Source of the DNA: Longimicrobiales bacterium
GTDB lineage: Bacteria; Gemmatimonadota; Gemmatimonadetes; Longimicrobiales; Gaopeijiaceae
Assembly: GCA_965249725.1 (NCBI GenBank)
Contig: CBDFMQ010000002.1
Span: 1,760,001-1,824,000 of the forward strand
DNA: 64,000 bases
Direction of reading: 5' to 3'
Part shown: piece after piece, positions 17,056-61,182 of the stretch
Layout of the letters: each line of letters opens with the position of its first letter
How positions within the stretch are numbered: the first letter of the stretch is position 1
Position numbers and translations under genes: made by a program
Notes under the pieces: model-generated
The model's database searches: none
The model's input: only the letters and a program-made list of their open reading frames with translations
What the model was told of the DNA's origin: nothing

Positions 17056-18657
17056 ATGGAAGACGCCGCGATGACTCACTCGGAACCCGCCCCTGTGCAA
17101 GCCCCAGGCCCCGCCAGAGCCGAGGACCTGCCCCGTGCGTACAACGCCGCCGACATCCTCGAGTACAACGTAGCCCGTCATCCTCAGAAAGAAGCTCTCC
17201 ACACGGCAGAGGGAGCTCTGAGTTTCGCCTCCGTCTCGGAGAGTACCAGCCAGGTCGCACATGCTCTGCGCGCGATGGACGTACGGATCGGCGACACCGT
17301 GGCGATTCTCTGTCTCGACACGGCCGAGTGGGTCGCCACGTTCTTCGGGACCCTGAAGTGCGGAGGCGTGGCCGCCGGAATGAGCACGTTGCTGACGCCC
17401 GACGAGATCGCCTTCATTCTCAACGACTGCCGAGCGCGGGTTCTCGTAGTGCACGCCGACTTGGTGACCGGTCTCGAACAGACCCGGCATGACTGTTCGT
17501 TCCTCGAGCACGTGATCGTGGTCGGAGGAAGCGCACCCGATGGCGATACGACATTCGACGAGTGGGTCGGCGGTCAGCCCACGTCGTTCGAGACTGCTCC
17601 CACACACCGAGACGACTACGCCACACTCAACTACTCCAGCGGCACGACGGGCAAACCCAAGGGCATTCTGCACGCCCACAAGGACCTGGTCCTAACCGCC
17701 GAGCTCTGGGGCTCCCGTACCCTCGGGCTGACCGAGTCCGACCGGACCTTCTCGCTCGCGAAGCTGTTCTTCACCTTCGGCCTGGGAGGCAACCTGCTCT
17801 TCCCTTGGCACGTGGGCGCGGCGGCGGTCCTGTACCCGGGGAGCCCCCGCCAGGCGACGAGGGTCCTCGAGGTCATCGATCGCTTCCATCCGACCGTTCT
17901 GTTCAACGCACCCACGGGGTACGCCTCGGCGCTAGCGGTCGAGGACTTCACCGAGCGCTATGACCTCTCTTCCCTGAGACTCTGTGTCTCGGCGGCGGAG
18001 GCGCTGCCCGCTCCGCTTTGGCAGGCCTGGAAGGATCGGACGGGCCTCGACACACTCGACGGCATCGGGTCCACCGAGAACTTCCACATCTTCCTGTCGA
18101 ATCGCCCCGGAGACATTCGCCCCGGTAGCAGTGGAAAGCCCGTCGAAGGGTACGAGATGCGCATTGTGGACGAGGAGGGCGCACCGGTACCGCGTGGAGA
18201 GGTCGGCAACCTGCACGTGAAGGGTGAGACGGCCGCCCATTCCTACCTGCACGACGCGGAACGGAGTCGAGAGAGCTTCCTGGGGGAATGGCTCAACACC
18301 GGTGACAAATACTACGAAGACGAGGACGGTTACTTCTGGCACGCGGGACGATCCGACGACATGCTCAAGGTCGGCGGCATCTGGGTCTCGCCTGTGGAGG
18401 TCGAGAGCACTCTGATCGGGCACGACACCGTCCTCGAGTGTGCGGTGGTGGGCGCAGCGGATGACGCCGGCCTCATCAAGCCCAAGGCCTTTGTGGTACC
18501 CGCCCCGGGCGTAGAGCCCTCCGACCAAGCGGCAGAGACTCTGGTCCAGCACTGCGTCGGCTCCATGTCGGCCTACAAGCGGCCTCGCTGGATCGAGTTC
18601 GTCGAGGAGCTGCCCAAGACCGCCACCGGGAAGATCCAACGGTTCAGGCTTCGTTGA
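17056..18657 (+). CDS. Benzoate-CoA ligase family aryl-CoA ligase
   Basis: YSSGTTGKPKG, DGIGSTE, GRSDDMLKVGG and PKTATGKIQR motifs. Confidence 0.9.
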   Translation: MEDAAMTHSEPAPVQAPGPARAEDLPRAYNAADILEYNVARHPQKEALHTAEGALSFASVSESTSQVAHALRAMDVRIGDTVAILCLDTAEWVATFFGTLKCGGVAAGMSTLLTPDEIAFILNDCRARVLVVHADLVTGLEQTRHDCSFLEHVIVVGGSAPDGDTTFDEWVGGQPTSFETAPTHRDDYATLNYSSGTTGKPKGILHAHKDLVLTAELWGSRTLGLTESDRTFSLAKLFFTFGLGGNLLFPWHVGAAAVLYPGSPRQATRVLEVIDRFHPTVLFNAPTGYASALAVEDFTERYDLSSLRLCVSAAEALPAPLWQAWKDRTGLDTLDGIGSTENFHIFLSNRPGDIRPGSSGKPVEGYEMRIVDEEGAPVPRGEVGNLHVKGETAAHSYLHDAERSRESFLGEWLNTGDKYYEDEDGYFWHAGRSDDMLKVGGIWVSPVEVESTLIGHDTVLECAVVGAADDAGLIKPKAFVVPAPGVEPSDQAAETLVQHCVGSMSAYKRPRWIEFVEELPKTATGKIQRFRLR

Positions 18658-43023: not shown

Positions 43024-45567
43024 TTATGACGCAACAGGACCCCCGAGGGTTTCGAGCCGCCCCAATGCACCGATGAGATCGGGCTCATCGCCGAGCACAT
43101 CAAGGTGCGGATCCCCCCCTTTGAGGCGCTTCATGCGTGAGGGTACCGTTTTGATGGTATGCTTCCGGATGTCCAGCTTGTTCGTCACCTCGCTCCACCG
43201 CAGCGGCGTGGACACGGCGGCCTCGGGCACAGGCCGCACGCAGAACGGGGCTACCAACAATTGGCCTGATGCGTTTTGCAGAAAGTCCACGTAGACCTTC
43301 CCTTCTCGGCTCTTGAGGGCCCGGGCGACGGTAGCGATCTCCGGGAGCTCTCCCACCACCACGCGGGCGAGCAGGTTGCCGAGCATGCGGGATTGCTCGT
43401 AGTCCATCTGCCGTCCGAGCGGAATGAGCACATGTAGTCCTGAAGAGCCACTGGTCTTCACATAAGTGGGAAGCTCGATCTCATCGCACACCTGGCGGAT
43501 CACCTTCGCGACCTTCACCACGTCGGTGAACGGCGCGCCCTTCGGGTCCAGATCCAAGATGCACCAGTCGGGCTTGGCGAGGCTGGAGATACGACTCGAC
43601 CAGATGTGAAGCGGGATGGCCGCCGAGTTGGCCACCCAGAGGAGCGACTCCACGTCTTCGACGACGAAATAGTCGAGGACCTTCTCAGAGTCCTCACTCA
43701 CGATGGGCTCTCTTCGGAGCCACTCGGGTGCCCACTCGGGAGCGTTCTTCTGATAGAACGAGTTCCCGTCGATGCCGTCCGGATAGCGCGTGAGCACCAA
43801 GCAACGGTCTTGGAGATACGGCGAGATCCACTCCCAAACCGATTGGTAGTACTCGATGAGGTCCCCCTTCGTGTAGCCCGCCTCTGGCCAGAAGACCTTG
43901 TCGAGATTGGTAAACGGCACCGTCCGCTCCACCGTCCTGTCCACGACCTTCACCGGCTCGGCCAGGACCTGATCCTCGTCCTCGTCCTCGCCTCGCCTGA
44001 CGCACTCCTCGGCCTGCTTGTCGTCCCTGAGGCGCGCGAACGAGGGATGCCGGATGACTCCGGCGTCCGTGAACTCCTTGTATTGCACCTCGGCAACCAT
44101 CCGGGGCTGAACCCAGTGGTGGGCCTTGCCCTTGGGGGTCGGGCCGGCGCACGGAGGCTTCGGCTCGCTGTCCAGCGACTGGAGCTCCGCGAGAATCTCG
44201 TCGAGAAGAGCGTCGCTGAAGCCGGTCCCGACACTCCCCGAGTACGTCAACTCACCGGAGACGTACTGAGCCAGGTGGAGCGCCCCGAAACCGGGCCGTC
44301 CCCCCTTCGGGTCCGTGTAGCCCACCACGACGAAGTCGTCGGCCTCGACCGTTCGGATCTTGTACCAGTTCGTCGAGCGGCCCGAGCGATAGGGAGCGTC
44401 CGCCTTCTTGGCCACGATTCCCTCGAGACGCATGTCCGTCACCTGCTTGAACATGGCCTCACCCCGCACCGCAATGTGATCCGAGTAGCGAATGGGCCCC
44501 ACACTCGGAAGCACCTCTCCGAGAAGCTCCTTGCGGGAGACCAGCGGCAGATCTCGCAGATCGAGCCCACCGAAGGCGAGGAGATCGAAGGCGTAGAAGA
44601 CCGCCGGAAGATCCAGCGTCGCCTGGAGAATGTCCGACCGTCGTTGTAGACGGCCGCGCCGCTGGAGCCGGCTGAAGCTCGGGAGCCCGGCCTCATCGTG
44701 GACGACCACCTCTCCGTCGAGGACGGTGCCGTCGTACGGAAGGCCCTGGAGGGCCCGGGCAATATCGGGAAAGGTCTCCGTGAGGTCGTTTCCGTTCCGG
44801 GACCACAACACCGCTCGTTCGGTCTCCCGGGACGCGATGAGCCGGTAGCCGTCGTACTTGAGCTCGAAGATCCAACCCTCTTTGTCGAAGGGCTCTTCGC
44901 GGCTGGTGGCCAGCATGACCTTCATCTTCTTTGCCGAGGGGGACTCCTTCTCCGCTCCGAGCTCACGGGCCCGAGCGAGGATCTCCGCCTCGCGCTGCCC
45001 AGGTTCGAGAAGCTGGTCGACCAGGAGGCCCGAGTAGATGGAGTCGTCCGGATACCCCTCGGTGCCGCTCTCATCGACGTAGCCGTCACGCTCCTTGATG
45101 AGCAGCCAGTGGTTGTGTCCACGCTTGGGGGTGTGCACCAGCGTCCAACGGCCCCGCAGCTTGTACCCTCTCAACTCGAAGAGGAGTTTGCCGTGCTCCA
45201 GCCCGTGCTTCTCGCCGGGCACGTCGATCCAAACGCCCTTGTCCCAGCAGATGGACGGACCGGCTCCGTACTGACCCTCGGGGATGACTCCCTCGAACTC
45301 GGCGTACTCGAGCGGATGGGGCTCCACATGCATGGCGAGACGCTTGTCGGCCGTGTCGGGCGATGGCCCCTTGGGCACAGCCCACGACTCCAATGCACCG
45401 TCCATCTCCAGTCGAAGATCCCAGTGCAGCGAACTCGCATGGTGTTTCTGCACGACGAACAACCGGGCCTCACCGGCCGATCCCATGCCGCCGAAGGGCT
45501 CCGGGGTATCGGAGGCAGACCGCTTTTCGCGGTAGCGCTCGAGTCTGTCGTCGGAGGTGGATGACAT
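43024..45567 (-). CDS. ligD: NHEJ DNA ligase D (phosphoesterase-ligase-polymerase)
   Basis: FVVQKHHASSLHWDLRLE (PE), ELKYDGYR and EGIVAK (ligase), LDLDP and KTSGSSGLH (polymerase). Confidence 0.97.
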   Translation of the reverse strand: MSSTSDDRLERYREKRSASDTPEPFGGMGSAGEARLFVVQKHHASSLHWDLRLEMDGALESWAVPKGPSPDTADKRLAMHVEPHPLEYAEFEGVIPEGQYGAGPSICWDKGVWIDVPGEKHGLEHGKLLFELRGYKLRGRWTLVHTPKRGHNHWLLIKERDGYVDESGTEGYPDDSIYSGLLVDQLLEPGQREAEILARARELGAEKESPSAKKMKVMLATSREEPFDKEGWIFELKYDGYRLIASRETERAVLWSRNGNDLTETFPDIARALQGLPYDGTVLDGEVVVHDEAGLPSFSRLQRRGRLQRRSDILQATLDLPAVFYAFDLLAFGGLDLRDLPLVSRKELLGEVLPSVGPIRYSDHIAVRGEAMFKQVTDMRLEGIVAKKADAPYRSGRSTNWYKIRTVEADDFVVVGYTDPKGGRPGFGALHLAQYVSGELTYSGSVGTGFSDALLDEILAELQSLDSEPKPPCAGPTPKGKAHHWVQPRMVAEVQYKEFTDAGVIRHPSFARLRDDKQAEECVRRGEDEDEDQVLAEPVKVVDRTVERTVPFTNLDKVFWPEAGYTKGDLIEYYQSVWEWISPYLQDRCLVLTRYPDGIDGNSFYQKNAPEWAPEWLRREPIVSEDSEKVLDYFVVEDVESLLWVANSAAIPLHIWSSRISSLAKPDWCILDLDPKGAPFTDVVKVAKVIRQVCDEIELPTYVKTSGSSGLHVLIPLGRQMDYEQSRMLGNLLARVVVGELPEIATVARALKSREGKVYVDFLQNASGQLLVAPFCVRPVPEAAVSTPLRWSEVTNKLDIRKHTIKTVPSRMKRLKGGDPHLDVLGDEPDLIGALGRLETLGGPVAS

Positions 45568-45748
45568 CCGGGAACGTTAGCGGGGGCCCGTGGCCCTGCA
45601 CCACCTCCCCACACCCACACGCACTGGAATAGCGCCGCCGGTCGTCCCACATTGCGACCAAGACGCCGGGCCTTCGTATCGCAGCTTCCCTCGGCCAAGG
45701 TGCGTGAGGGCCCAAATCGTAGCCGGCTTCACGAGGGGCGGAGGTCCC

Positions 45749-47197
45749 ATGCATGATTCATCCGTGATCGAGAGGTGTGCACCCCCGCGGGCCGTGAACG
45801 GTAGTCAGGTAGCACAGCTCGTTCGAGCGCTCGCCCTCTCGGCTCTGGCAGCGCTGGCATTCTCGAGCACGGGCGAGCTGAATGCGCAGGACGCCGCACT
45901 CGGGCCGGCGAATCCGCTCACCAAGCTCGGGGGCTCACCGAACGTGCAGCTCCTCAGCCACCTGCCGCTCGAGGGGTTCTTCTACAACGGTGGGATCGAC
46001 ATCGAGCAAGAGATGTCGCGCCCCTACGCCTACGTCCCGCTGTGGCTCGACAAGGCGGGCTTCGTGGTGATCGACCTCGAGGACCCGGAGAACCCCGAGA
46101 TCATCTACCGGTGGGAGATCGAGAACGCCGAGCTCCATCAGTTCGGCCGTGGGGAAACGGGCAAGTATTTCAAAACGGGCGACCGTTACTACTACGTGAA
46201 GACAACGATCTTCGGCACCGCCGGGCCGGATCCGGACCTCTGTGCCGTGGTCTTCGATGTGACCGGTCTTCCCGACCCGAACAGCGTGTTCGAGGTCGGC
46301 CGCCTCCGGTCTCCGGATATCGTCACCGGATGCCTCAGCGTCTTTCCCTACAAGCACTCCGACGGACGTACGCTTCTCTTGGCCGGCGTGCGGGGGGCGA
46401 CGCCGGGGACCGAGCCCCACGGCAAGATCTACGACATGGACCGCTTCATCGCCGGAGATGCCGATCTGGGCTACGTGGGACCTGTGCCGCTACCCGACCT
46501 CGGCTTCGGGCCGACCAACTCCGCCTATCACGACCTCTACGCGGCCTACGACCCGGACAGAGCGCGCGATGTGGTCTACGGCGGCGGCGCGGGCGGGTAT
46601 CACCTGTACGACATGACGGTCCCCGAGGATCTCGAGTATCTGGGCTCGATTTCCGGGACGAGCGGGGTGCAGCGCGGTCATACTATCATCGCGACGCCGG
46701 ACGCTCGCTACGCCGTGACGCAGATGGAGTATCAGTTCGCGCCGATGATGGTCTTCGACCTCTCACCGATCCACGATGGGATCACACAGCGGATCTCACG
46801 CCCCACCGGCGCATGGATCGCCGACTGGAAGGACCTCGCCCACAACATGGAGGTGCGCTGGCCCTATGTGTTCGTGGCTGCATACGAAGACGGTCTCCAG
46901 ATCTTCGACATGCGAGACCCGGGGGACCCAATGACGCTCGGATGGCACTACACGTGCCACTGCACCCATCAGACGGGTTTCGGAGGGGGAGATCGCGTCA
47001 GGGGTACAAGCGTCTTCAACGGGGCCATGGAGGTGGACGTGCGAAACGAGGACGGACTGATCGTGGTCAGCGACCTCAATACGGGGTTCTGGGCGTTCCG
47101 GCTCAACGGCTTTACGGGGTGGAACGGCAGGGAGTACGGCCTCCCCAACATCTCGAGTGCGCAAGATTGGGACTTCGGGCCGCCCGTCCGCAGGTAG
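45749..47197 (+). CDS. Secreted LVIVD-like beta-propeller protein
   Basis: Signal-like N-terminus; YHD, GHT, AHN, YEDGLQIFD and SDLNTGFW motifs. Confidence 0.7.
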   Translation: MHDSSVIERCAPPRAVNGSQVAQLVRALALSALAALAFSSTGELNAQDAALGPANPLTKLGGSPNVQLLSHLPLEGFFYNGGIDIEQEMSRPYAYVPLWLDKAGFVVIDLEDPENPEIIYRWEIENAELHQFGRGETGKYFKTGDRYYYVKTTIFGTAGPDPDLCAVVFDVTGLPDPNSVFEVGRLRSPDIVTGCLSVFPYKHSDGRTLLLAGVRGATPGTEPHGKIYDMDRFIAGDADLGYVGPVPLPDLGFGPTNSAYHDLYAAYDPDRARDVVYGGGAGGYHLYDMTVPEDLEYLGSISGTSGVQRGHTIIATPDARYAVTQMEYQFAPMMVFDLSPIHDGITQRISRPTGAWIADWKDLAHNMEVRWPYVFVAAYEDGLQIFDMRDPGDPMTLGWHYTCHCTHQTGFGGGDRVRGTSVFNGAMEVDVRNEDGLIVVSDLNTGFWAFRLNGFTGWNGREYGLPNISSAQDWDFGPPVRR

Positions 47198-47234
47198 GGG
47201 CTCATCACCTTTTCATTGCGTAGTTCCGGGGCGT

Positions 47235-47246
47235 GAACATATGTTT
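47235..47246. promoter_or_regulatory. Palindrome GAACATATGTTT upstream of ku
   Basis: Perfect 10-bp core AACATATGTT in an AT-rich leader. Confidence 0.35.
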
Positions 47247-47285
47247 TCTTCCGCCTTTTAGTCATGGAAAAGGGAGTTTTTCACA

Positions 47286-48135
47286 ATGGCCGCACGTCCG
47301 ATTTCCACGTCGACCATCTCGTTCGGGTTGGTTTCCGTGCCGGTAAAGCTCTATGCGACCGGGGAATCCAAGTCTCGGATCTCGTTCAACATGGTCCACA
47401 AAGACTGTGGAACCCGTGTGAAACAGCAGTACATCTGTCCGAAGGACGACGGTGATCGTCCCCTGAGAGGACATGGTAAAGGGGTACGAGTTCGCCAAGG
47501 GGCAGTACGTGCTCTTCACTCCCGAGGAACTCAAAGCGGTCGAGCAGCCCAAGACCGACTCCATTCAGATCACGGAGTTCGTTCCTTCGGATCAGGTGGA
47601 CCGCCTGTTCCTCGACCGCGCCTACTACCTCGGGCCGGACAAAGGTGGCAACCGGGCCTACTTGCTCCTTTCCGCGGCCCTGCAGGAGACCGAGCGCGTC
47701 GCCATCGCCAAGTACGCTACCCGGGGCAAACAGTACCTCGTGATGGTGCGCCCCTTCGGCGAAGGCCTGCTGATGGAACAGCTCCTCTACGCCGATGAGG
47801 TGCGCGACTTCGCGGATGTGCCGGTGGAGGAGGGCGAGGTGGACGACTCCGAGCTGAAGCTGGCGGTGCAGCTCGTGGATCAGGCGTCTTCGGAAGAGTT
47901 CCAGGCCAAGGAGTACAAGGACGAAGTCCGCGACCGGATGCTCGAGCTCATCCAGCAGAAGGTCGACGGCGAGGAGATCGTCTCGTCGGTCACCGAAGAG
48001 CCCCAGACACAGATCATCGATCTGATGGCGGCCCTCAAGGCCAGTCTCTCCGACGAGGGCGAGGAGAGGAAGCCGGCCAAGAAGGCATCCAGTAAGAAGA
48101 AGACCACAGCCAACAAGAAGGCGTCTTCGGGCTGA
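47286..48135 (+). pseudogene. ku: Ku protein, interrupted (+1 frame change near 47450-47470)
   Basis: ISFGLVSVPVKLY N-terminus in one frame; MVKGYE...AYYLGP...IIDLMAALKASL and a basic tail in the +1 frame. Confidence 0.9.
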
Positions 48136-48205
48136 TCGCCCGGGCAACCAGGCGGACCGACCACGATCGGCGGCTGATGAGCCTGCCCGACCTGGGGACG
48201 GAAAC

Positions 48206-49036
48206 ATGAAGGTGAACACCACTGGGTACACCACCCGGCAGGTAGCCGAGATCCTCGGCATCCCTATTGCCCGTGTGCAATCTCTCGCCAGGTCCGGGTT
48301 CTTCGATCCTGCCAGGGGCCCCCGCAACGAATACCGGTTCTCCTTCTCGGACATCATTCTCCTCCGCACCACCCGTGACCTGAGGGATGCAGGCGTCTCG
48401 ATGCAGCGCGTCGGCGGGGTTCTTCACGCACTGCGTGAGAAGCTCCCGGAAGGTGAGCCGCTGAGCGCTCTCCACATCACTTCCGACGGGGACACCGTGG
48501 TGGTGAAGGAAGAGAGCACTGTCTGGGATCCGCGATCCGGCCAGGTCCATCTCGACTTTTCCGTCGGTGAGCTCGCCGAGAAGGTCGAGCCCATCGCCCG
48601 CGCGGGCGCCTCACATCATGCGTCGGTCGACCTGACCGCCGACGAGTGGTACGACCTGGCGCTGGATCTGGAGCCGGTAGCGACGGACCGCGCCACGGAT
48701 GCGTACCGACGCGCACTCGCCCTCAACCCGGGGCATGTAAGGGCTCATCTCAACTTGGGCCGCCTGCAGCACGAAGCGGGAGAGGTCGAGTCGGCCGAAG
48801 CCCACTACCGTCAGGCGTTGGCCGCCAATCCCGATTCACCGACCGCCGCCTTCAACCTGGGCGTGGCTCTGGAAGACCTCGGACGGGTCGAGGAGGCCAT
48901 CCAGGCGTACGAGAGGGCGCTACGCTCCGAGCCGGACATGGCATCGGCGCACTACAACCTGTCGCGCCTCTACGAGGCCCAGGGGCGGTCCAAGGAAGCG
49001 CTGCGACACCTGGCCGACTACAAGCGGTTGGTCTAG
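48206..49036 (+). CDS. MerR-type HTH plus TPR-repeat protein
   Basis: YTTRQVAEILG...YRFSFSDIILLR MerR motif; 3-4 TPRs (AHLNLG, AAFNLG, AHYNLS). Confidence 0.88.
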   Translation: MKVNTTGYTTRQVAEILGIPIARVQSLARSGFFDPARGPRNEYRFSFSDIILLRTTRDLRDAGVSMQRVGGVLHALREKLPEGEPLSALHITSDGDTVVVKEESTVWDPRSGQVHLDFSVGELAEKVEPIARAGASHHASVDLTADEWYDLALDLEPVATDRATDAYRRALALNPGHVRAHLNLGRLQHEAGEVESAEAHYRQALAANPDSPTAAFNLGVALEDLGRVEEAIQAYERALRSEPDMASAHYNLSRLYEAQGRSKEALRHLADYKRLV

Positions 49037-51287: not shown

Positions 51288-52466
51288 CTAAGGTACCACT
51301 TCCCCAAGAGCCTCCATGGCGGTCTGGAGCTGGTCGTCCGTGAGGTAGGGGGCAGGGCCGAATCGAAGCACGTCTCCCCGGTAGTCCGTCCGCACTCCGC
51401 GCGTGGCCAACCCCTCGCTCAACCGGGCCGCATCGGGAGAGCGTAGCGCCAGGAATCCCGCCACCCCCTCCAACGGCACGCTACGGTCCCGGTCCACCAC
51501 ATCAGGATCGAGATCCAAGCCGTCGAACACCTCCATGAGGAGCCCCACCTGGTGTTGGCTTCGCTCCCGCAAGCGCTCCTGGGTCAGTCCCTGCTCCGAG
51601 AAGAAGTCGAGCACGGCCGCCGCCCGATAATGGCTCGTGGGGTCGTACGTGGATCCGGCGAACCGAGCCGCCCCCTCGCCATAGGCCGTCCGCCCCTGGT
51701 CCTTCTCATGGGCCAGAGTGGCGAACTCGCTGAACCAGCCCGTGATGACCGGCCGGAACCGACAGCCATCCGGAAAACGCAGCCAGCAGTTTCCCTCCCC
51801 CATCTGCATGTACTTGTATCCGCCACCAACCACGAAGGCGCGACCCAACCGCTCCCGCTCGATCGAGTAAGGCACGACGTTGGTCGAGTGATACGCATCG
51901 ATCAGGAGTTCGGCCCCCAACGACTCACACGCGTCGAGGACGGCCCCGAGGTGGGGCACACAGTGAGCGTTTTGAAAGAGCACGCACGACGTCAGCACCG
52001 CCGCGGTCTTCTCGTCGACCGCGGCGATCAAGCGCTCGGCGAGCGTATCCGCCGGAAGCGCCGCGACCTTCACGACCTCCACGGGCTCCTCCGCCAGCCG
52101 ATCGAGCTGCCTCCGTATGCTATGGAACTCCTGGTCCGTCGTGACCAGTCGGGGGCGCTCAAGCAAAGGGGTGGCGGAGAGGAAGCGGGTGACGAGCTCA
52201 TGGGTGTTTTGTCCCAAGGCCACCAGTCCCTTCGGATCGTCGAGCAGTGTAGCCACACCACGTCGTAGTGCCTCCGCCCGCTCCTCGGCCAGGTCCCACT
52301 TCCGATCCACATGCTCGGCCGCATCGAGCCACGCCTGCTGCTGCGCCTCGAAGGCGACGTCGGGCCAGGCCTGGTGTGAGTGTCCGGTCAGGAGCAGCCG
52401 TTCGGAGACCCGAAAGCGAGTGTAGTGGGCGGCGAGTGCGGCTGGGTCGATCATGCGGTGCGCCAC
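51288..52466 (-). CDS. kynU: Kynureninase
   Basis: IDAYHS, VGGGYKY, ITGWF, DYRG..LRFGPAPY; adjacent to TDO. Start may be 52454. Confidence 0.88.
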   Translation of the reverse strand: MAHRMIDPAALAAHYTRFRVSERLLLTGHSHQAWPDVAFEAQQQAWLDAAEHVDRKWDLAEERAEALRRGVATLLDDPKGLVALGQNTHELVTRFLSATPLLERPRLVTTDQEFHSIRRQLDRLAEEPVEVVKVAALPADTLAERLIAAVDEKTAAVLTSCVLFQNAHCVPHLGAVLDACESLGAELLIDAYHSTNVVPYSIERERLGRAFVVGGGYKYMQMGEGNCWLRFPDGCRFRPVITGWFSEFATLAHEKDQGRTAYGEGAARFAGSTYDPTSHYRAAAVLDFFSEQGLTQERLRERSQHQVGLLMEVFDGLDLDPDVVDRDRSVPLEGVAGFLALRSPDAARLSEGLATRGVRTDYRGDVLRFGPAPYLTDDQLQTAMEALGEVVP

Positions 52467-52493: not shown

Positions 52494-53282
52494 CTAGAGC
52501 CGGCTGCGGATCGCCCAGAGATCCGGAAAGACCGGCGCGTTGAGGGTCGTGCGCAAATAAGCCGAGCCGGCGGACCCTCCGGTACCGGCCTTCATGCCGA
52601 TGGTGCGCTCCACCATTTTCACGTGCCGATACCGCCACTCCTGCAGCCCCTCGTCCAGATCGACCAGGCGCTCGCAGACGGAGGCCGCGGCGGGATTCTC
52701 CCGATACACATCGACAAGGACCTCCTGAAGATCTTCTGACGCGGCCACGGGCCGCGTGACGTCTCGGCTCAGGTGGGCCTCAGGCACCGGAAATCCCTCA
52801 CCGTGCAGGAAGGTGAGGAAGGCGTCCCACAGCGTTCTCTCGCCGAACCGTCGCTCGAGGTTCATTCGGCCGTCGCTGCCCTCCGGAAACCGTTCGATGG
52901 CCTTCGCGTTCTTGGCTCCGAGCAAATATTCCAGCTCGCGGAACTGATAGGACTGAAAGCCCGAAGCGGCCTCCAGGCGTGTCCGGAAGGAGAGGAACTC
53001 CAAGGGAGTCATCGTCTCCAGGATGTCGAGCTGAGCCACCAAAACCTTCAGGATGGTGAGCACCCGCTTGAGGGTGTGAAGCGAGCGGGAGTGATCCCCC
53101 TCCTCCATGAGTCGACACACGTAGTCCACCTCGTGAAGCACTTCCTTGAACCAGAGCTCGTAGACCTGGTGAATCACGATGAAGAGCATCTCGTCGTGCT
53201 CCGGCCCCTCGGAGAGCGGCTTCTGCAGGTTCAGCAGTTCCTGGATCTTGAGATAGCGGCCGTACGTGAGGGCTTCACTCAT
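52494..53282 (-). CDS. kynA: Tryptophan 2,3-dioxygenase
   Basis: HDEMLFIVIHQVYELWFK, SGFQSYQFR, WRYRH and GTGGSAG motifs. Confidence 0.97.
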   Translation of the reverse strand: MSEALTYGRYLKIQELLNLQKPLSEGPEHDEMLFIVIHQVYELWFKEVLHEVDYVCRLMEEGDHSRSLHTLKRVLTILKVLVAQLDILETMTPLEFLSFRTRLEAASGFQSYQFRELEYLLGAKNAKAIERFPEGSDGRMNLERRFGERTLWDAFLTFLHGEGFPVPEAHLSRDVTRPVAASEDLQEVLVDVYRENPAAASVCERLVDLDEGLQEWRYRHVKMVERTIGMKAGTGGSAGSAYLRTTLNAPVFPDLWAIRSRL

Positions 53283-55552
53283 TCGGTGGCTCCGAAGTCG
53301 AAAGCGAACCGTGCCGAATACTCGCTCACGGACTCGTACTGAGGCGGCCACTCCAGGTCATAGCCCAGCGTGTACGCGGCGTGCCGGGTCCAATACGGAT
53401 CGAAGAGGTGCGCCCTGGCGAGCAGGCAGAGGTCGGCCCGACCCGCCGCGAGGATCGTGTTCACGTCCATGTAGGACGAGATGTTGCCCACGGCCATGGT
53501 CGCGATGCCCACCTCCTGGCGCACACGATCGGCGAACGGAGTCTGGAAGAGCCGCCCGTACTGCGGGGCCTGGTCGGGAACGGTCTGTCCCGCGGACACG
53601 TCGACGATATCGCAGTCGTGAGTCTTCAGAAGACGCGCCACCTCCACCGAGTCCTCCGGCTCCATGCCGCCCGGCTTCCAGTCCACCGCGCTGATCCGCG
53701 CGGACATCGGCTTCTCGTCGGGCCACACACCACGGACGGCGTCGAACACCTCCAGAGGGAAGCGCATGCGGTTCTCGATACTGCCACCGTACTCGTCGTC
53801 TCTCTCGTTCGTGAGTGGCGAGACGAAGGAGGCCAGCAGATATCCATGAGCCAAGTGGAGCTCCAGGATGTCGAAGCCGGCCTCATGAGCGATCTCCGCG
53901 GCACGAGCGTAGTCGGCGATCGCCTGATCCATGTCGTCCCGCGTCATCTCCTTTGGGACGGGATTCTCGGGACGCCACGGAATGGGTGAGGCGGACAGTA
54001 CGTCCCACCCGTCCTGGGCCAACGGCTCGTTGTCGCCCTCCCACAGCTTCTGGGTGGACCCCTTCCGACCGGCATGACCGAGCTGGACGCCCACCTTGGC
54101 GCCGCTGTTTGCGTGGATGAAGTCCACGACCCTCTTCCAGCCGTCCACGTGCTCCGGCTTGTAGAGCCCGGTGCACCCGGTCGAGATCCGGGCATCTCGG
54201 CTCACATCGGTCATCTCTGCCATGACGAGACCGGCGCCCCCGACCGCACGGCTCCCGAGGTGCACGAGATGCCAATCGTTGGGCATCCCGTCCTCGGCCG
54301 TGTACTGGCACATCGGGGAGACCACGACACGATTCTGCAGGACCAGCTCGCGCATGCGGAACGCGGTGAACATGGGCGGTGGCGGCGGCACGAAGGGTAC
54401 CGCTCGGCCGCTCTGACGCTCGGCCTCGCAGGCGAACCAGGAGTCCACCTCGCGAATGTAGCCGGCGTCACGCAGACGGAGGTTCTCGTGCGTGATGCGG
54501 AGGCTTCTGGTGAGGAGCGTGAACCCGAACTGGACGGGCTCGATCTTCATGTAGCGCTCGGTGTCCTCGAACCACTGAAGGCTCGCCTGGGCGGCCCGTT
54601 GGACGCTCTCCACGGGCGGGCGCCGTTCCTTCTCGTACTCGGCAAGGGCGACGGACACGTCGGGAAAGCGGGCCATCGCCTCGGCGAGGGCGATCCCGTC
54701 CATCATCGCGATACGAGTTCCCGACCCCACCGAGAAGTGCGCCGTGTGCGCCGCATCCCCCAAGAGCACCAAGTTCTCGTGAGACCAAGCCTCGTTGCTA
54801 ACCGTCGGAAACTGCCGCCAGTGAGACCGGTTCTTCAGGAGGGGATGCCCCTCCAGTTCGTCCGCGAAGAGCTCCTCGCAGAACCGGGCGGTCTCGTCCT
54901 CGTCTTCGACAGCGAGCCCCGACGCCGCCCACGTCTCCTCGCGAGCCTCGACGATGAAGGTGGCCTTCCCCTCCTCGTACTGGTACGCGTGGACCCGCCA
55001 GAGACCGTGCTCGTTCTCCCGAAAGTAGAACGTAAAAGCGTCGAAGGGCCGAGTGGTCCCGAGCCATACGAAACGGTTTGGGCGGAAGTCGACGGTGGGT
55101 CGGAAGTGCTCGGCATAACGGTCGCGGATCTGGCTGTTCACCCCATCGGCGGCGAGGACCAGATCGGCGTCCCGGTAGGCCTCGACGTCGTCCACCTCCA
55201 CCTCGTAGTGGACCTCGATACCCAACCGATTCGCGCGCCTCTGCAGAATCCTGAGAAGCCTCCCCCGCGAGAGACCGGCAAAACCGTGTCCCGTCGAGGT
55301 GAGGATCTTCCCCCCGTAATGGATGTCGATGTCGTCCCAGTGGGCAAACGCTCTGGTAATGTCGAAGTAGACGTCCGGTTCAGCAGCCTCGATGCGAGCC
55401 AGCGTCGCGTCCGAAAAGACGACTCCGAATCCGAACGTGTCGTCGGGACGGTTGCGCTCGTAGACAGTGATCTCGCGGGACGGATCAGCCCCCTTCAGGA
55501 GAATGGCGGAGTACAGCCCAGCCGGTCCTGCACCCACGACATTGATTCTCAC
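53279..55552 (-). CDS. abmA: 2-aminobenzoyl-CoA monooxygenase/reductase (bifunctional flavoprotein)
   Basis: N-terminal [32 protein letters not shown] monooxygenase; C-terminal OYE domain ([14 protein letters not shown]). Confidence 0.92.
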
Positions 55553-56703
55553 TCTGAGGTACCTCTCCTCTGCTTCAAGCGATGACCTGCGATGATCAAG
55601 TGCTGAATGTCGGTGGCGCCCTCGTAGATGCGCAGTGCCCGGACGGAACGATAGAGCCGATCCACGACCGCCTCGGCCAGGACCCCGCGACCCCCCAGGA
55701 TCTGGATGGCGTCATCCACGACACGCTGAGCCGCCTCGGTGGCATAGGCCTTGGCCATGGCAGCTTCGACGGTAATACGCTCCGCCCCACGGTCCCGCTC
55801 CCAAGCCGCCCTGTACGTCAGGAGCCGCGCGGCCGTGAGTTCGGTAGCCATGCGTGCGAGCTTCTGCTGAACCAGTTGGAAGTCGGCCAGGGGCTTCCCG
55901 AACTGCTCACGCGACAGGGCATAGGCCTCCGCCTCGTCCAAAGCTCGGGCCGCCATGCCGCACGCGGCCGCTGCCACGGTGGGGCGCAGGCGATCGAAGG
56001 TGGCCATCCCGATCTTGAAGCCCTCCCCCTCGGCACCGAGTCTGGCGTGTGCGGGCACCCTGCAACCGTGAAAGGCCACTTCTCCCAGAGGATGGGGGGC
56101 GCTCATCACCAAGGGCTTCACGAACTCCAGGCCATCCGTGTCCGCGGGGACGACGAAGGCCGAGAGGCCACGGCTACCCTGCGCGGGATCGGTCGAGGCA
56201 AAGACCACGTACACGTCGGCGATACCGGCGTTGGAGATGAGCGTCTTGGTGCCCTCCAGTAGGTAGTCCTCACCATCTCGCACGGCGGTCGTACGCATGG
56301 ACGCTACGTCCGAGCCGGCTTCCGGCTCGGTCATCGCAAACGCCCCCAGGCTCGTACCGTCGAGGAGCCTCGGGAGCCATTCCTCACGCTGACCGGCGTT
56401 GTCGGCGAGCAGGAAGGGCGTCGCCGTGAGCGCCTGCAGCGCGTACACCGCGTCGGCCAGAGGACTGGCGCCCGCGATGGCCTCACGGGCTAGGCACGCC
56501 CCCCCGAGATCCTGCTCCTGAACGGGGCGCAGCCATCCACCTGATCCGAGCAGCGTCACGATCTCCCGAGCCTGAACACGCCCGGCATCATCGTCGGCCG
56601 GAGCGGGAAGCTTGGCCAGGTCAGCGGCCAAGGTCTCGACAGCGCTGGCCCATTCGACCTGCGCATCGTCCAAGAAGGCCCGCACGGCCCCGACGTCTGG
56701 CAT
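55549..56703 (-). CDS. Acyl-CoA dehydrogenase (AbmD-like)
   Basis: FAMTEPEAGSD and LRIYEGATD motifs. Confidence 0.93.
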   Translation of the reverse strand: MPDVGAVRAFLDDAQVEWASAVETLAADLAKLPAPADDDAGRVQAREIVTLLGSGGWLRPVQEQDLGGACLAREAIAGASPLADAVYALQALTATPFLLADNAGQREEWLPRLLDGTSLGAFAMTEPEAGSDVASMRTTAVRDGEDYLLEGTKTLISNAGIADVYVVFASTDPAQGSRGLSAFVVPADTDGLEFVKPLVMSAPHPLGEVAFHGCRVPAHARLGAEGEGFKIGMATFDRLRPTVAAAACGMAARALDEAEAYALSREQFGKPLADFQLVQQKLARMATELTAARLLTYRAAWERDRGAERITVEAAMAKAYATEAAQRVVDDAIQILGGRGVLAEAVVDRLYRSVRALRIYEGATDIQHLIIAGHRLKQRRGTSE

Positions 56704-57503
56704 CAGATAAACTGTGCGTCCCGCTTCGCGACAAAGGCCTCGTAGGCCTCACGGAAGTTGGGGTTCTCCATGCACTTGGCCTGGACCTGAGCCTCGGCCT
56801 CCAAAGCCGACGCGAGATCCATGGAGGCCTCTTCGTTGAGCGCTCGCTTCGTCATCTCCAGGGCATAGGACGGACCACGAGCCAGCTTCTCGGCCAGGCT
56901 GCGAGCCACATCGAGTAGATCGTCCTGGGGCACGACCTGGTTGTAGAGGCCGATCCGATGCGCCTCCTCGGGGCCGATGAAGTCGCCGGTCATGAGCAAC
57001 TGGGTGGCGTGGGCCAGCCCGACGATACGCGGCAGGAGCCAGGCGACCCCCATGTCGGCACCGGAGAGGCCCACCTTGGTGAACAGGTAGGCGATCTTGG
57101 CGTGCTCGGTGGCGATACGGATGTCGCACGCGGTAGCGATCACGGCACCCGCGCCGGCGACTGTTCCGTTCAGGGCTGCGATGACCGGGCGGCTGCACTC
57201 CCTGACGGCCAGAATCAGATTGCACGTCATCCGGGTGAAGTCGAGCAGTCCCTGGGAGTCCCGCTCGAAGAGGGCGCCGATGATGTCCTCGACGTCTCCC
57301 CCGGTGCAGAACCCCCGCCCCGCCCCGGTGATGACGATGCAGCGCACACCAGGCTCCACGTTCAGAGCCCGAAACGTGCTCTGGAGCTCCTCATAGACCT
57401 CGAACGTGAGAGCGTTGAGTCGGTCCGGGCGATTGAGCGTGATCGTGGCGACGGAGGTATCCGCATCGTGCTCGTACAGAAAGGACGTTGGCTGGATCGG
57501 CAC
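56703..57503 (-). CDS. Enoyl-CoA hydratase family protein (AbmC-like)
   Basis: LNRPDRLNALTF, FCTGGD and VGLSGADMG motifs. Confidence 0.93.
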   Translation of the reverse strand: MPIQPTSFLYEHDADTSVATITLNRPDRLNALTFEVYEELQSTFRALNVEPGVRCIVITGAGRGFCTGGDVEDIIGALFERDSQGLLDFTRMTCNLILAVRECSRPVIAALNGTVAGAGAVIATACDIRIATEHAKIAYLFTKVGLSGADMGVAWLLPRIVGLAHATQLLMTGDFIGPEEAHRIGLYNQVVPQDDLLDVARSLAEKLARGPSYALEMTKRALNEEASMDLASALEAEAQVQAKCMENPNFREAYEAFVAKRDAQFI

Positions 57504-57566: not shown

Positions 57567-57971
57567 TTAACCGGGTAGGACGGCGGTGGCCTCTATTTCG
57601 ACCTTGGCCCTGGGATCCACCATCTCGGACACGGCAACGAGCGCCATAGCCGGATAGTGTCGGCCCATCCGGTCACGATATCTCGCTCCGAGAGGCTTCA
57701 GGCTACTGCGGTATTCGGCCATATCAGTCACGAAGATCGTGAAACGGGCGATGTTCTCCGGCCCCCCACCCGCCTCCTCCACGACCGTGATCGACCGGGC
57801 GAGAGCGGCGTCGAACTGATCGACGAAATCGTCCGATACGATGGTCCCCGAGTCGTCCGACCCGGCCTGCCCCGCCACGAAGAGAACGCGGCTGCCGGCA
57901 GGCGCCAGGAGCCCGTTGTTCCAGCCACTTGGCGGGCCCAGGGAATCGGGGTTGAAGATCTCGAAGGTCAT
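57567..57971 (-). CDS. Rid/YjgF family protein (AbmF-like)
   Basis: ATG 57971; LFVAGQ, HYPAMAL and VEIEATA; lacks the catalytic Arg. Confidence 0.88.
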   Translation of the reverse strand: MTFEIFNPDSLGPPSGWNNGLLAPAGSRVLFVAGQAGSDDSGTIVSDDFVDQFDAALARSITVVEEAGGGPENIARFTIFVTDMAEYRSSLKPLGARYRDRMGRHYPAMALVAVSEMVDPRAKVEIEATAVLPG

Positions 57972-58051: not shown

Positions 58052-58828
58052 CTAGGCCAGCAGGGCCCCACCGTCGATTACGATAGCCTGGCCGTTCACG
58101 CTCCCGGCGTCCTCCCCACACAGATAAAGCACGGCGTCGCCGACCTCGCCGGGCTCGACCAGTCGCTTTTGGGCGAGCGTCGCCAGCAACGCCTCGAGGG
58201 CCTCGCCCCTGGTCATGCCCGAGCGGGCCATGATCTGATCGATCGTGCCGTCCGTCATGGGCGTGTTGACGTAACCGGGACACAACGCGTTGACCGTGAC
58301 TCCGGTTCCGGCCATCTCGGCCGCCGCTGAGCGGGTCAAGCCGAGCACCGCATGCTTCGACGCGGAGTACGCCGACGTGTAGCGGCTTCCCAGACGCCCG
58401 GCCACCGACGCCACATTGACGACCCGCCCCCAGTCCCGCTCGATCATCCCGGGAAGGAAGGCACGGGCACAGAGGAATGAGCCCGTTGCGTTCACCTGAA
58501 TCGTCCGGTTCCAGTCCTCCAGGGTCTCGCGAACCAGAAGAGCCGAGTGGCCGACTCCGGCGTTGTTCACGAGGATGTCGACGCTCCCTAATGTGTCCGC
58601 GGCGGCCTGTTCGAGATCGGCGACCGAAGCTTCGTCGGCCACATCGCACAGGGCCCAGTGGGCCGACCCTCCCGAGGCCTCGATGGACTCGGCCACATCG
58701 CGGACCTCGTCCTGCGAGCGAGCGCTCACCAGCACCGCCGCGCCCGCATCCGCGAGCATTCGGGCTACGGAGGCTCCGATCCCACGGCCCCCGCCCGTCA
58801 CGACCGCCGTCTTACCTTTCAGGCTCAT
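58052..58828 (-). CDS. SDR oxidoreductase (AbmB-like)
   Basis: TGGGRGIG, NNAG, YSASK and CPGYV motifs. Confidence 0.93.
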   Translation of the reverse strand: MSLKGKTAVVTGGGRGIGASVARMLADAGAAVLVSARSQDEVRDVAESIEASGGSAHWALCDVADEASVADLEQAAADTLGSVDILVNNAGVGHSALLVRETLEDWNRTIQVNATGSFLCARAFLPGMIERDWGRVVNVASVAGRLGSRYTSAYSASKHAVLGLTRSAAAEMAGTGVTVNALCPGYVNTPMTDGTIDQIMARSGMTRGEALEALLATLAQKRLVEPGEVGDAVLYLCGEDAGSVNGQAIVIDGGALLA

Positions 58829-59598
58829 GACGGCTCACCTGCCTTCTGAGAACCCAGGATCGCGAGCACCGCCTCTTCGACGATCGCCCCGAGCGTGCGC
58901 ACGGTCTCGACCCCTTCTTCTGCGCTGGCGTCGGCCGGGAACCCGAAATAGGCCTGCGGCCCGCCCGCCTCGTGGAATGTCGAGAGTTCGTCGCGAATCG
59001 CATCCGACAAGGACTTGGGGTTGGGGGGGAGACCTCGCCGGATCTCCTCCCGTACCAACTCGGGCGCCACAGCCATTACGATGGACGTCTCGTACTGACC
59101 GGCATGACAGGCTCCTGACTGAAACTCCTCGGTCAGTCGAGCGGCCAAGTTCCTCTTGGTGAGGTCCGGGAAGATGATCGGCACTTCGGAGGCATACGCG
59201 CGCTGAACGGCGTTCCGTAGTGCGACGAGGTGGGTCGGATCCAGATGCGTATTGCAGAGCACCAAGCCCCGGGCCCCGTGAGCCGCCCCCGCCCGCGCGA
59301 TATCCCGGACCAAGCGGCTGAGCGCCTCGCTCGATACGGACACCGTTCCCGGAAACTCGGCCGCGAAGGACGCCGGCGTGTAGTCGATCGTGGGCAACAC
59401 CACCGGTCGCATGCCATGCACCTCGAGCCTCGCGGCGGCGTCGAGCGCCCATGCCTCGGCGATGATCCCATCGGTCCGCACCGGTAGATGAGGTCCATGC
59501 GCCTCCACGGCGCCGATAGGCAGCAGGCCGATCCACGGCTCGCTCTGCGCGTCTCTAGCCTCTTCCCAGGTCATCTCGGCTAGTGGACGTATCGGCAT
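58825..59598 (-). CDS. Creatininase-family amidohydrolase
   Basis: ATG 59598 with AGGAG RBS; LPIGAVEAHGPHLP..TD and HAGQYETS. Confidence 0.9.
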   Translation of the reverse strand: MPIRPLAEMTWEEARDAQSEPWIGLLPIGAVEAHGPHLPVRTDGIIAEAWALDAAARLEVHGMRPVVLPTIDYTPASFAAEFPGTVSVSSEALSRLVRDIARAGAAHGARGLVLCNTHLDPTHLVALRNAVQRAYASEVPIIFPDLTKRNLAARLTEEFQSGACHAGQYETSIVMAVAPELVREEIRRGLPPNPKSLSDAIRDELSTFHEAGGPQAYFGFPADASAEEGVETVRTLGAIVEEAVLAILGSQKAGEPS

Positions 59599-59619
59599 GC
59601 GTGCTCCTATCATCGGGCC

Positions 59620-61182
59620 ATGGCCTCCATGTATCCCGAAGAGTTCAATATCGCCGACTACTTCCTGGATGCTCGCATCCGAGAAGGACGGGGGAACCGC
59701 ATCGCCCTCCGAACGGACAACTGCGACTTCACCTACACCGAGGTCCAGGAACTCGCCAACCGCTTCGGTAACCTGTTGCGTGCCGCCGGCGTGGAGCCCG
59801 GACAGCGCGTCATTATTGCGCTTCCGGACGCCCCCGAATATGTGGCGGCCCTTTTCGGGGTGCTCAAGATCGGCGCCGTGGTAGTCATGGTCAACCCGGA
59901 CCTGAAGCCCGACGCCATCGAATATTTCTACCAGTACACAGGCGCGCAGGTCGCTCTGATCCACGTCGAGACGCAGGTTGCCTTCCACGAAGCAGCCCAG
60001 GCCGTCGAGACGCCCCCCCGTCTTCGCGTCGTGGGCGACCACGACTTCGCGACGTCGCTGGACGAAGCCTCCGCCGAGTTGGACAACTACGTGAGCCACC
60101 GGGACGACCCCGCGATCTGGCTGTTCTCGGGGGGCACGACCGGTCAGCCCAAGGCCGTGGTCCAACCACATCGTTCCTTCGCCAACACCACCGATCTATA
60201 TGCGAAGGGTCACCTCCTTTATACGGAGGACGACATCACCCTCTCCGTACCCAAGCTCTACTTCGGGTACGCCACCGGATCGAATCTCCTCTTTCCGTTC
60301 TCGGTGGGTGGGTCGGCCGTCCTCTTTCCGGAGCGGTGCGTGCCGGACGTCCTCTTCGAGAAGATTCGGCGCTACAGACCCACCATCCTCATCAACGTAC
60401 CCACGATGGTAAATCACATGGTGAGCCAAGACGATGCGCGCGCTCAGGACCTCTCATGCCTGCGGCTCGCGACTTCGGCCGGAGAGGCTCTCCCGATGGA
60501 ACTCCACAGCCAATGGAACGACGTCTTCGGTGTCGACCTCCTGGACGGACTCGGGACCGCCGAGATGTGGCACATCTTCCTCTCCAACCGGCCAGGCGAC
60601 GTACGCCCCGGCACGCTCGGAACGGTGGTGGAGGGATTCGAGGTGAAGGTCTGCGGTCCCGGGGGGAACGAGCTGGCCCCCGGAGAGGTCGGATTGCTCC
60701 GCGTCCGAGGGGACTCACGAGCGATCGGCTACTGGGAACAGCCCGAGAAGACGCGCGACGCCTTCGAGGGGAACTGGTATCTGTCCAGCGACATGGTCAG
60801 CCGAAGCGAAGAGGGTGTCTTCACCTATGCCGGTCGTTCCGACGACATGCTCAAGGTGTCCGGCAAGTGGCTCTCGCCAAAGGAAGTCGAGAACTGCCTC
60901 CTTCAGCACCCGGGGGTGGACGAATGCGCCGTGGTCGGGGTCGTCGTCGAGGGGGGACTGATCAAACCGCGTGCCTACGTCGTCCTCACAGAAGAGGCGG
61001 CAGGCCGGGAGCAGGATGAAGAGGCAGGAGGCCGACAGCAGGATGATCTGGCCGACGAGCTGAAGCTCTACGTGAAGGAGACGCTCGCACCCTACAAGTA
61101 TCCACGAGAGATCCACTTCATGGACGACCTTCCACGAACCCATCTGGGCAAAGTGGACAGGGGCAAGTTGCGGAGCATATGA
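59620..61182 (+). CDS. Benzoate/2-aminobenzoate-CoA ligase family protein (AbmG-like by context)
   Basis: FSGGTTGQPK, DGLGTAE, GRSDDMLKVSG and PRTHLGK; divergent from the abm operon. Confidence 0.9.
   Translation: MASMYPEEFNIADYFLDARIREGRGNRIALRTDNCDFTYTEVQELANRFGNLLRAAGVEPGQRVIIALPDAPEYVAALFGVLKIGAVVVMVNPDLKPDAIEYFYQYTGAQVALIHVETQVAFHEAAQAVETPPRLRVVGDHDFATSLDEASAELDNYVSHRDDPAIWLFSGGTTGQPKAVVQPHRSFANTTDLYAKGHLLYTEDDITLSVPKLYFGYATGSNLLFPFSVGGSAVLFPERCVPDVLFEKIRRYRPTILINVPTMVNHMVSQDDARAQDLSCLRLATSAGEALPMELHSQWNDVFGVDLLDGLGTAEMWHIFLSNRPGDVRPGTLGTVVEGFEVKVCGPGGNELAPGEVGLLRVRGDSRAIGYWEQPEKTRDAFEGNWYLSSDMVSRSEEGVFTYAGRSDDMLKVSGKWLSPKEVENCLLQHPGVDECAVVGVVVEGGLIKPRAYVVLTEEAAGREQDEEAGGRQQDDLADELKLYVKETLAPYKYPREIHFMDDLPRTHLGKVDRGKLRSI
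60991..61044 (+). repeat. 27-bp in-frame duplication (EEAAGREQD / EEAGGRQQD)
   Basis: Read directly. Confidence 0.8.

Follow-up and report, generated by a model that had tools for sequence, protein, structure and literature searches.

The window, a stretch of 64,000 nucleotides from the genome of a Longimicrobiales bacterium, carries a minus-strand run of genes for tryptophan (kyn) and anthranilate (abm) catabolism, headed by a creatininase-family gene here termed CRT. The order of the run is CRT, a short-chain dehydrogenase/reductase (SDR), RidA, enoyl-CoA hydratase, acyl-CoA dehydrogenase, abmA, kynA and kynU. An earlier reading of this DNA (the original prediction) had described a cluster with kynA, kynU and abm-like genes, a creatininase gene in first position and no kynB, and profile annotation confirmed this arrangement; no cyclase gene was found in the window's cluster. 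It had further proposed that CRT replaces the missing N-formylkynurenine formamidase, KynB. Our results indicate that CRT is probably a deformylase for an intermediate derived from tryptophan, and they point to a step after the kynureninase rather than before it.

Gene organization of the locus

The genes of the cluster and the divergent ligase gene are the following.

58825 to 59598, minus strand: CRT, creatininase-fold binuclear metallohydrolase, putative N-formylanthranilate (aryl-formamide) deformylase
58052 to 58828, minus strand: SDR, 3-hydroxyacyl-CoA dehydrogenase-like, AbmB-like; its start overlaps the CRT stop
57567 to 57971, minus strand: RidA-family enamine/imine deaminase, AbmF-like
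56703 to 57503, minus strand: enoyl-CoA hydratase PRK08258, AbmC-like (365.8 bits, cut-off 330)
55549 to 56703, minus strand: acyl-CoA dehydrogenase, AbmD-like
53279 to 55552, minus strand: AbmA-like 2-aminobenzoyl-CoA monooxygenase/reductase (PRK08255, 1130.8 bits, cut-off 1078)
52494 to 53282, minus strand: kynA, tryptophan 2,3-dioxygenase (TDO; PF03301, 227 bits); its ATG overlaps the abmA stop
51288 to 52466, minus strand: KynU*, divergent kynureninase-like pyridoxal phosphate (PLP) enzyme with PLP lysine K218, putatively cleaving N-formylkynurenine
59620 to 61182, plus strand: divergent benzoate/anthranilate-CoA ligase of a CRT-linked clade (TIGR02262, 486 bits, above cut-off)

The window's kynA scored 282 bits on TIGR03036, below the cut-off of 391. 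The start codons of CRT and the ligase (59598 and 59620) diverge with 21 bp between them. The promoter of the CRT operon must lie inside the ligase gene. A TATCAT box at 59608-59613, 6 nt upstream of the ligase ATG, has similar counterparts in several homologous loci, and the ligase transcript is probably leaderless, as judged from the sequence; one promoter match was found, no more than expected by chance (1.2 in shuffles). The best PDB matches of the ligase were benzoate-CoA ligase 2v7b and anthranilate-CoA ligase 4wv3, and its clade is marked by the motif KL[YF]FGYA[TM]G. A second gene of the benzoate-CoA ligase family (17056-18654, plus strand; TIGR02262, 550 bits), 39% identical to the cluster ligase, stands alone between the dnaE region and phosphate-transport genes.

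CRT has a creatininase fold and a conserved metal site

The open reading frame of CRT encodes 257 amino acids and has an AGGAG ribosome site 5 nt upstream of its ATG. Since its homologues share the 59598 start position as well, a longer open reading frame starting at 60171 was rejected. CRT matched the Pfam family Creatininase (PF02633) with 173.5 bits (E 6.5e-51, cut-off 31.3), which places it in this superfamily; no other Pfam match was found, and CRT does not belong to the cyclase fold of KynB (TIGR03035). Its AlphaFold model has a mean pLDDT of 92.7, and the top Foldseek matches were creatininases, with a TM-score of about 0.7. Residues E32, H34, D43, H118 and E170 align to the metal ligands of Pseudomonas putida creatininase and are invariant in all 155 members of the subfamily alignment (35 from the loci described below and 120 best database matches; L038 was left out of alignment A1 because of an internal stop). 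The fold and the E/H/D/H/E ligands of the original prediction were thus borne out by Pfam, the structural model and the alignment.

The motif NTHLDPTH, which had been singled out as unusual, is present at residues 116-123, where P. putida creatininase has NGHYEN. Its oddity needs refining, since D120 occupies the column of E122 in the P. putida enzyme (D in 137 and E in 18 of the 155 members) and the motif therefore keeps an acid. We take E122 to have a catalytic role in creatininase; titles in the PDB include a creatininase E122Q mutant. The subfamily is further marked by a near-invariant EEFxSGACHAGxYE motif; basic residues are conserved at R/K148, R/K149 and R154, and C164 is invariant.

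Membership in better-known branches of the superfamily was not observed. CRT reached 87 bits on the creatininase equivalog model TIGR04448 (cut-off 235), 103 on MftE (TIGR03964, cut-off 172) and 33.8 on IolN (NF041098, cut-off 245), and the ArfB model gave no match to it at E 0.001. The columns of Y121, W154 and W174, which presumably form the substrate pocket of creatininase, as mutant titles in the PDB also suggest, are replaced in CRT. The nearest homologue (77%) is from a Longimicrobiales genome, and four further creatininase paralogues of the host genome are all distant from CRT. Of 8,000 candidates in a search with CRT, 5,818 matched at E 1e-30, a number that takes in distant family members; a plasmid search gave no match at 1e-20, and matches in the ESM Atlas carried generic names only. 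Relatives of CRT are annotated as 'creatinine amidohydrolase' in their source records, and cultured carriers include Sphingomonas horti, S. changbaiensis, Amycolatopsis xylanica and Kibdelosporangium aridum.

CRT accompanies the ligase in homologous loci

Homologous loci were collected with CRT (set 1, the best 80 of 137 relatives, two of these loci from one genome), with a more distant CRT (set 2, 80 of 171 further loci, largely from Actinomycetota and with many isolates) and with a Sphingomonas ligase as the query (72 close relatives among 79 loci; 7 distant ones were left out). In set 1, the ligase was present in 69 of the 80 loci, SDR and hydratase in 67 each, abmA in 56, kynA in 36 and kynU in 34. 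The corresponding figures for set 2 were 70 of 80 for the ligase, 46 for kynA, 44 for kynU and 25 for abmA, with hydantoinase A/B in 21. The distance from CRT to the ligase was at most 400 bp in 58 loci of set 1 and 56 of set 2 (114/160); for kynA the numbers were 0 and 2 (2/160), and for abmA 0 and 21. Conversely, the ligase-first set had CRT in 56 of 72 close loci, or 56 of 63 without the contig-end cases, and 14 of its CRT loci showed no abm gene within the fetched flanks. The context of nearly all CRT loci is aromatic catabolism. No cyclase was found in any of the 239 CRT or ligase loci; regular co-occurrence with kynB in the same clusters, which the original prediction regarded as fatal to its proposal, was not seen.

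In Pseudonocardiales isolates, the genes are arranged as the units kynU*-kynA-PaaX and CRT-ligase, and none of five genomes had a KynB-grade gene (best 58 bits). At two Pseudonocardiales loci (L426, L464), a PaaX-family regulator, presumably aryl-CoA responsive, lies between kynA and CRT, linking kyn control to the CoA route. A separate CRT subclade (L386-L419, 21 loci from Thermoleophilia, Anaerolineae and others) is linked to hydantoinase/oxoprolinase A and B, often with ligase and abm genes, which suggests a lactam source feeding the same route.

Clusters of abm genes with SDR, hydratase, dehydrogenase and RidA but without CRT are common. Two ligases aligned from such clusters have a PLAFTFGLG motif and are 31-33% identical to the CRT-linked clade. 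In Sphingomonadales, CRT-free abm clusters often contain an isatin hydrolase gene. In six Sphingomonadales genomes (L256-L261), abmA is the only abm gene of the fetched region; in five of them its neighbour encodes a very large protein.

The absence of KynB tracks the divergent kynureninase

The distribution of these genes was assessed in 50 of the 79 CRT-carrier genomes, picked for diversity, and in 261 genomes of the window's phylum, evenly sampled at a completeness of at least 90%; the two samples partly overlap. Genes were called KynB-like at 129 bits or more in the 50 carriers and at E <=1e-25 in the phylum sample. All counts are over related genomes, not independent events, and carry no p-value; the unpublished genomes G428 (CRT, ligase, KynU*, TDO), G403 (TDO and KynB, adjacent) and G343 (TDO) each shift them by one.

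TDO was found in 50 of 50 carriers and in 82 of the 84 carriers of the phylum sample, against 160 of 261 genomes overall. The phylum sample contained CRT in 84 genomes, the ligase clade in 85, KynU* in 104 and KynB-like genes in 88. CRT and the ligase clade coincided in 83 genomes (83/84 with CRT, 83/85 with the ligase), 81 of the 84 CRT carriers had KynU*, and none of 23 KynU* genomes without CRT had the ligase clade. Among the 50 carriers, 38 had KynU*, 10 another kynureninase-like type and 2 neither.

KynB-like genes were rarer in CRT carriers than in non-carriers of the phylum sample (11/84 vs 77/177), a comparison confounded by family and by KynU*. They were found in 12 of the 50 carriers, one above the cut-off and none with a kyn gene within 1.5 kb. 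When genomes with TDO were divided by KynU*, KynB-like genes occurred in 10 of 102 with KynU* and in 43 of 58 without it. Within the former group, they occurred in 9 of 81 genomes with CRT and 1 of 21 without CRT, i.e., they were absent from 72 and 20, respectively. Among genomes for which both positions were listed (12 TDO matches were not), a distance of at most 3.5 kb separated kynB from kynA in 22 of the 31 that lack KynU* and in none of the 10 that have it. The anticorrelation between CRT and kynB that the original prediction had proposed to test shows in the raw counts, but its signal tracks KynU*, not CRT. G497, in which CRT occurs with a kynA-linked KynB, was set aside because the closest relatives of its CRT are actinobacterial and the contig may be foreign to the bin; it is still counted in the tallies.

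A low-stringency search of ten near-complete CRT-free KynU* genomes, nine of them single contigs, found no CRT fragment (best 82 bits), and a BD-FAE match at 1e-12 was absent from 4 of 5 CRT-free genomes. Among 201 Sphingomonadales, CRT was found in 2 genomes and KynU* in 28, always directly beside kynA (gap of at most 206 bp, too short for a gene). Cyclases were absent from 15 of these 28 (both CRT carriers among them), and abmA was present in 9. Hence, 13 of the 26 CRT-free KynU* Sphingomonadales also lacked any cyclase. Together with the 20 of 21 CRT-free TDO and KynU* genomes of the phylum sample, they run counter to the idea that CRT fills every gap left by KynB between kynA and kynU. Local BLAST and visual inspection of eight loci showed no formamidase-like gene beside kynA. 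In G496, a distant creatininase paralogue that lies 2 kb from kynA was rejected (25% identity, probable signal peptide).

The host genome (G000, completeness 95.8%) was searched for KynB as the original prediction had suggested, and no KynB-grade cyclase was found. Its four cyclases were rejected as KynB, the best reaching 63.8 bits against a cut-off of 223, although a weak side activity on N-formylkynurenine is possible. By their N termini, inspected by eye, three of them are lipoprotein-like; the fourth (C3:311543-312322) is an isatin hydrolase (PDB 5nnb, E 2e-95) and could supply the cluster with anthranilate from a second source. The genome also encodes an AFMID-like alpha/beta hydrolase with HGGCW and GHSAGG motifs and a probable signal peptide. 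RibBA is present with an intact Cys-x10-Cys-x-Cys motif.

KynU* itself differs from canonical kynureninases. No NCBIfam kynureninase model matched it, TIGR01814 included, and a single-sequence search of the PDB gave no match. A 16-sequence profile had Pseudomonas fluorescens kynureninase 1qz9 as its top match (E 1e-17, 22% identity), as did the fold by Foldseek (TM-score 0.80), and both the fold and the PLP site are kynureninase-like. KynU* has HSHxxWPD where canonical kynureninase has NSLGxMP; at the KynU* motif positions, the canonical kynU reads NSLG and FPSD. The alignment of 124 sequences showed HSH in 124/124, with WP, D54, K56, W57, EF, GYKY, T273, Y280 and R281 also invariant; the clade thus has invariant residues of its own in the pocket. 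KynU* (104/261 phylum genomes, 28/201 Sphingomonadales) stands nearly always directly behind kynA, without kynB. A third kynureninase-like type (L301, L175, L177, L179), with an S[HN]SLGA[MV]P motif and 92-152 bits on TIGR01814, below the cut-off, was observed near kynA in some Acidobacteriota and Planctomycetota.

Proposed route and points that weigh against it

TDO makes N-formylkynurenine. Since kynA-kynU* pairs are retained in genomes that lack both KynB and CRT, the simplest reading is that KynU* accepts N-formylkynurenine as it is and would cleave it without prior deformylation to alanine and N-formylanthranilate. Such a cleavage by kynureninase is known from Neurospora. For Streptomyces, it is drawn in a predicted network (PMC9058172, in part). 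CRT follows or adjoins the ligase and KynB adjoins kynA, so the substrate of CRT is more likely N-formylanthranilate than N-formylkynurenine, although the latter may be accepted as a side substrate. As a binuclear metal amidohydrolase equipped with D120, CRT would hydrolyse the aryl formamide to formate and anthranilate. The adjacent ligase would then convert anthranilate to anthraniloyl-CoA, which AbmA and beta-oxidation enzymes would degrade, as their homologies suggest. In such a scheme, CRT appears and disappears together with the ligase, according to whether the ring is to be used.

Hydroxylation by AbmA occurs para to a free amine. AntF, the antimycin ligase, activates anthranilate, not N-formylanthranilate (PMC3869250, in part), and, taken together, these two properties imply that the formyl group must leave before the ring is attacked. 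From sequence and gene context, we give about an even chance that CRT deformylates N-formylanthranilate or its CoA ester after direct cleavage of N-formylkynurenine by KynU*. Only some fifth of that weight falls on the variant in which CRT acts after the ligase, on N-formylanthraniloyl-CoA. Activated N-acylanthranilates cyclise to benzoxazinones, which favours the free acid; the basic patch of CRT would also suit CoA.

Several observations weigh against this order of steps. Cleavage of N-formylkynurenine by KynU* is suggested by co-occurrence only, and the other kynureninase-like type of 10 of the 50 carriers elsewhere accompanies kynA-kynB. G247 combines kynA and kynU* with an abm cluster whose ligase is of the AbmG type, and lacks both CRT and any cyclase, so CRT is not required there. 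A non-specific formamidase could serve the CRT-free kynA and kynU* genomes; the host genome has the AFMID-like hydrolase described above. The bond to the ligase is incomplete, as 7 of 63 ligase loci with room for CRT lack it, and CRT lies within 400 bp of SDR in 56 of 80 loci of set 1 (1 of 80 in set 2). CRT-SDR fusions occur in six database proteins, and two of the three viewed look clean (P0124, P0126). Finally, CRT stands with hydantoinase A/B in 21 loci of set 2, all of them free of kyn genes; of 10 genomes with hydantoinase-linked CRT, of unknown completeness, 3 gave no TDO match and 7 had one.

Alternative functions of CRT

The original prediction cast CRT as a non-orthologous N-formylkynurenine formamidase that would work between KynA and KynU. 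This role is in our assessment unlikely, though it survives best among the alternatives. What is supported is its link with tryptophan catabolism and with a deformylation step that is missing: TDO is nearly universal in carriers, KynB-like genes are few and, where viewed, never beside kynA except in G497, and the creatininase fold includes formamidases. Carriers with the other kynureninase type and no KynB-like gene (G002, G003, G007, G010, G011, G014, G018) fit either substrate. The position of the step is not supported, because CRT almost never adjoins kynA or kynU and follows the ligase instead, and because kynA and kynU* occur without CRT and KynB in the phylum and Sphingomonadales genomes counted above. 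No fusion of CRT with kynA or kynU was seen among eight longer matches (weak evidence).

A place for CRT downstream of AbmA, as an amide hydrolase or a C-C hydrolase like IolN, was the alternative offered by the original prediction, and we consider it somewhat less probable still. We know of no assignment for the ring-degradation steps after AbmA, and CRT heads the abm operon, adjoins SDR or, in the actinobacterial set, abmA, and is fused to SDR. Of four longer proteins viewed, the AbmA-CRT protein P0129 and P0122 look like frameshift read-through. The conserved basic residues and C164 could bind a CoA ester. This placement is weakened by the common abm clusters that have the other ring genes and no CRT, by the 14 loci in which CRT accompanies the ligase without abm genes nearby, by the low frequency of abmA relative to the ligase in actinobacterial loci (25 vs 70 of 80), and by the poor IolN score.

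It is improbable that CRT serves more generally as a feeder hydrolase, acting on N-acyl or amide derivatives of anthranilate with a non-tryptophan origin, such as lactams opened by hydantoinase-like enzymes. The hydantoinase loci without kyn genes would fit, and quinolone cleavage also yields N-formylanthranilate (PMC3167764, in part). The window's own subfamily, in contrast, is closely linked to TDO and KynU* (81/84), and no hydantoinase gene adjoins it. That CRT is an ordinary creatininase or a deformylase of the riboflavin pathway (BrbF/ArfB), as the Pfam family name and the 'creatinine amidohydrolase' annotations might suggest, is very improbable given the low equivalog score, the lack of an ArfB match, the replaced pocket residues, the intact RibBA of the host and the aromatic-catabolism context.

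Implications of the proposed deformylation after the kynureninase

If CRT acts on N-formylanthranilate, the order of steps and the subfamily are what is new here; the chemistry and the fold are already known. Tentatively, we put forward a widespread KynB-independent route built from three dedicated subfamilies, the formylkynureninase KynU*, the N-formylanthranilate deformylase CRT and the partner anthranilate-CoA ligase clade. With a likelihood a little short of even, this route would be common to Gemmatimonadota, Eisenbacteria, Acidobacteriota, Alphaproteobacteria and Pseudonocardiales, and organisms with kynA-kynU* alone might take the alanine of tryptophan and release N-formylanthranilate. 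Many genomes with kynA and kynU and no kynB are now read as having an incomplete pathway; if the proposal is true, reordered steps close this gap. The large subfamily mislabelled as 'creatinine amidohydrolase' would then gain a function, a kynureninase clade a new preferred substrate, and bacteria a source of N-formylanthranilate together with a tryptophan route into the little-understood anthraniloyl-CoA pathway.

Other features of the window

The region 43027-49036 holds genes of non-homologous end joining: ligD lies at 43027-45567, Ku at about 47473-48135, and a gene for a MerR-TPR protein comes next. The minus-strand gene at 9590-10918 encodes a class-V PLP enzyme that resembles PvdN (NF051467, 134 bits, below the cut-off) and probably has a twin-arginine leader.

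Comparison with known systems

The abm clusters of Azoarcus evansii reportedly contain AbmA, SDR, hydratase, acyl-CoA dehydrogenase, RidA and a ligase (Schuehle et al. 2001), all of which have counterparts in the window's cluster. Where seen, abm clusters without CRT differ from CRT clusters in their ligase clade (PLAFTFGLG) and often have an isatin-hydrolase cyclase. KynU* shares with P. fluorescens kynureninase 1qz9 the PLP lysine in GYKY, the D-x-x-H motif, W57 and T273, and differs in its HSHxxWPD, EFH and DxxxxYR motifs and in the missing TIGR01814 match. A dedicated bacterial clade of N-formylkynurenine-cleaving kynureninases was not found in print.

KynB (PF04199, TIGR03035) and CRT are both metal-dependent hydrolases that would liberate formate in the conversion of tryptophan to anthranilate. 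Their folds are unrelated, KynB stands beside kynA (22/31) and CRT beside the ligase, and the proposed substrate of CRT arises after the kynureninase. P. putida creatininase (PDB 1j2t, 3a6d) has the same fold, the same five metal ligands, a histidine equivalent to that of CRT (H165 = H178) and an acid at the E122 column; it is only about 22-25% identical, and CRT lacks its pocket aromatics and falls far below its equivalog cut-off. In the open-access literature (supplements excluded), we found no link between a creatininase-family protein and kynurenine or anthranilate catabolism.

The statement of the original prediction that the family includes an N-formyl deformylase is supported by ArfB of archaea and also by BrbF (SMc02977) of Sinorhizobium meliloti, creatininase-fold deformylases of riboflavin synthesis that release formate from an N-formyl group (PMC9478397, in part). 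CRT has their fold and would likewise hydrolyse an N-formyl group on a (hetero)aromatic amine. It differs in its catabolic context, in a host with canonical RibBA and in giving no match to the ArfB model; the comparison by sequence was with ArfB. A functional analogue of another fold is the N-acetylanthranilate amidase of Arthrobacter Rue61a, presumably named Amq. The anthranilate that this amidase frees is proposed to pass on to an anthranilate-CoA ligase and an AbmA homologue in that strain, as the product of CRT would here; the amidase differs from CRT in its alpha/beta-hydrolase fold, in the acetyl group removed and in quinaldine as the source (PMC3534580, in part).

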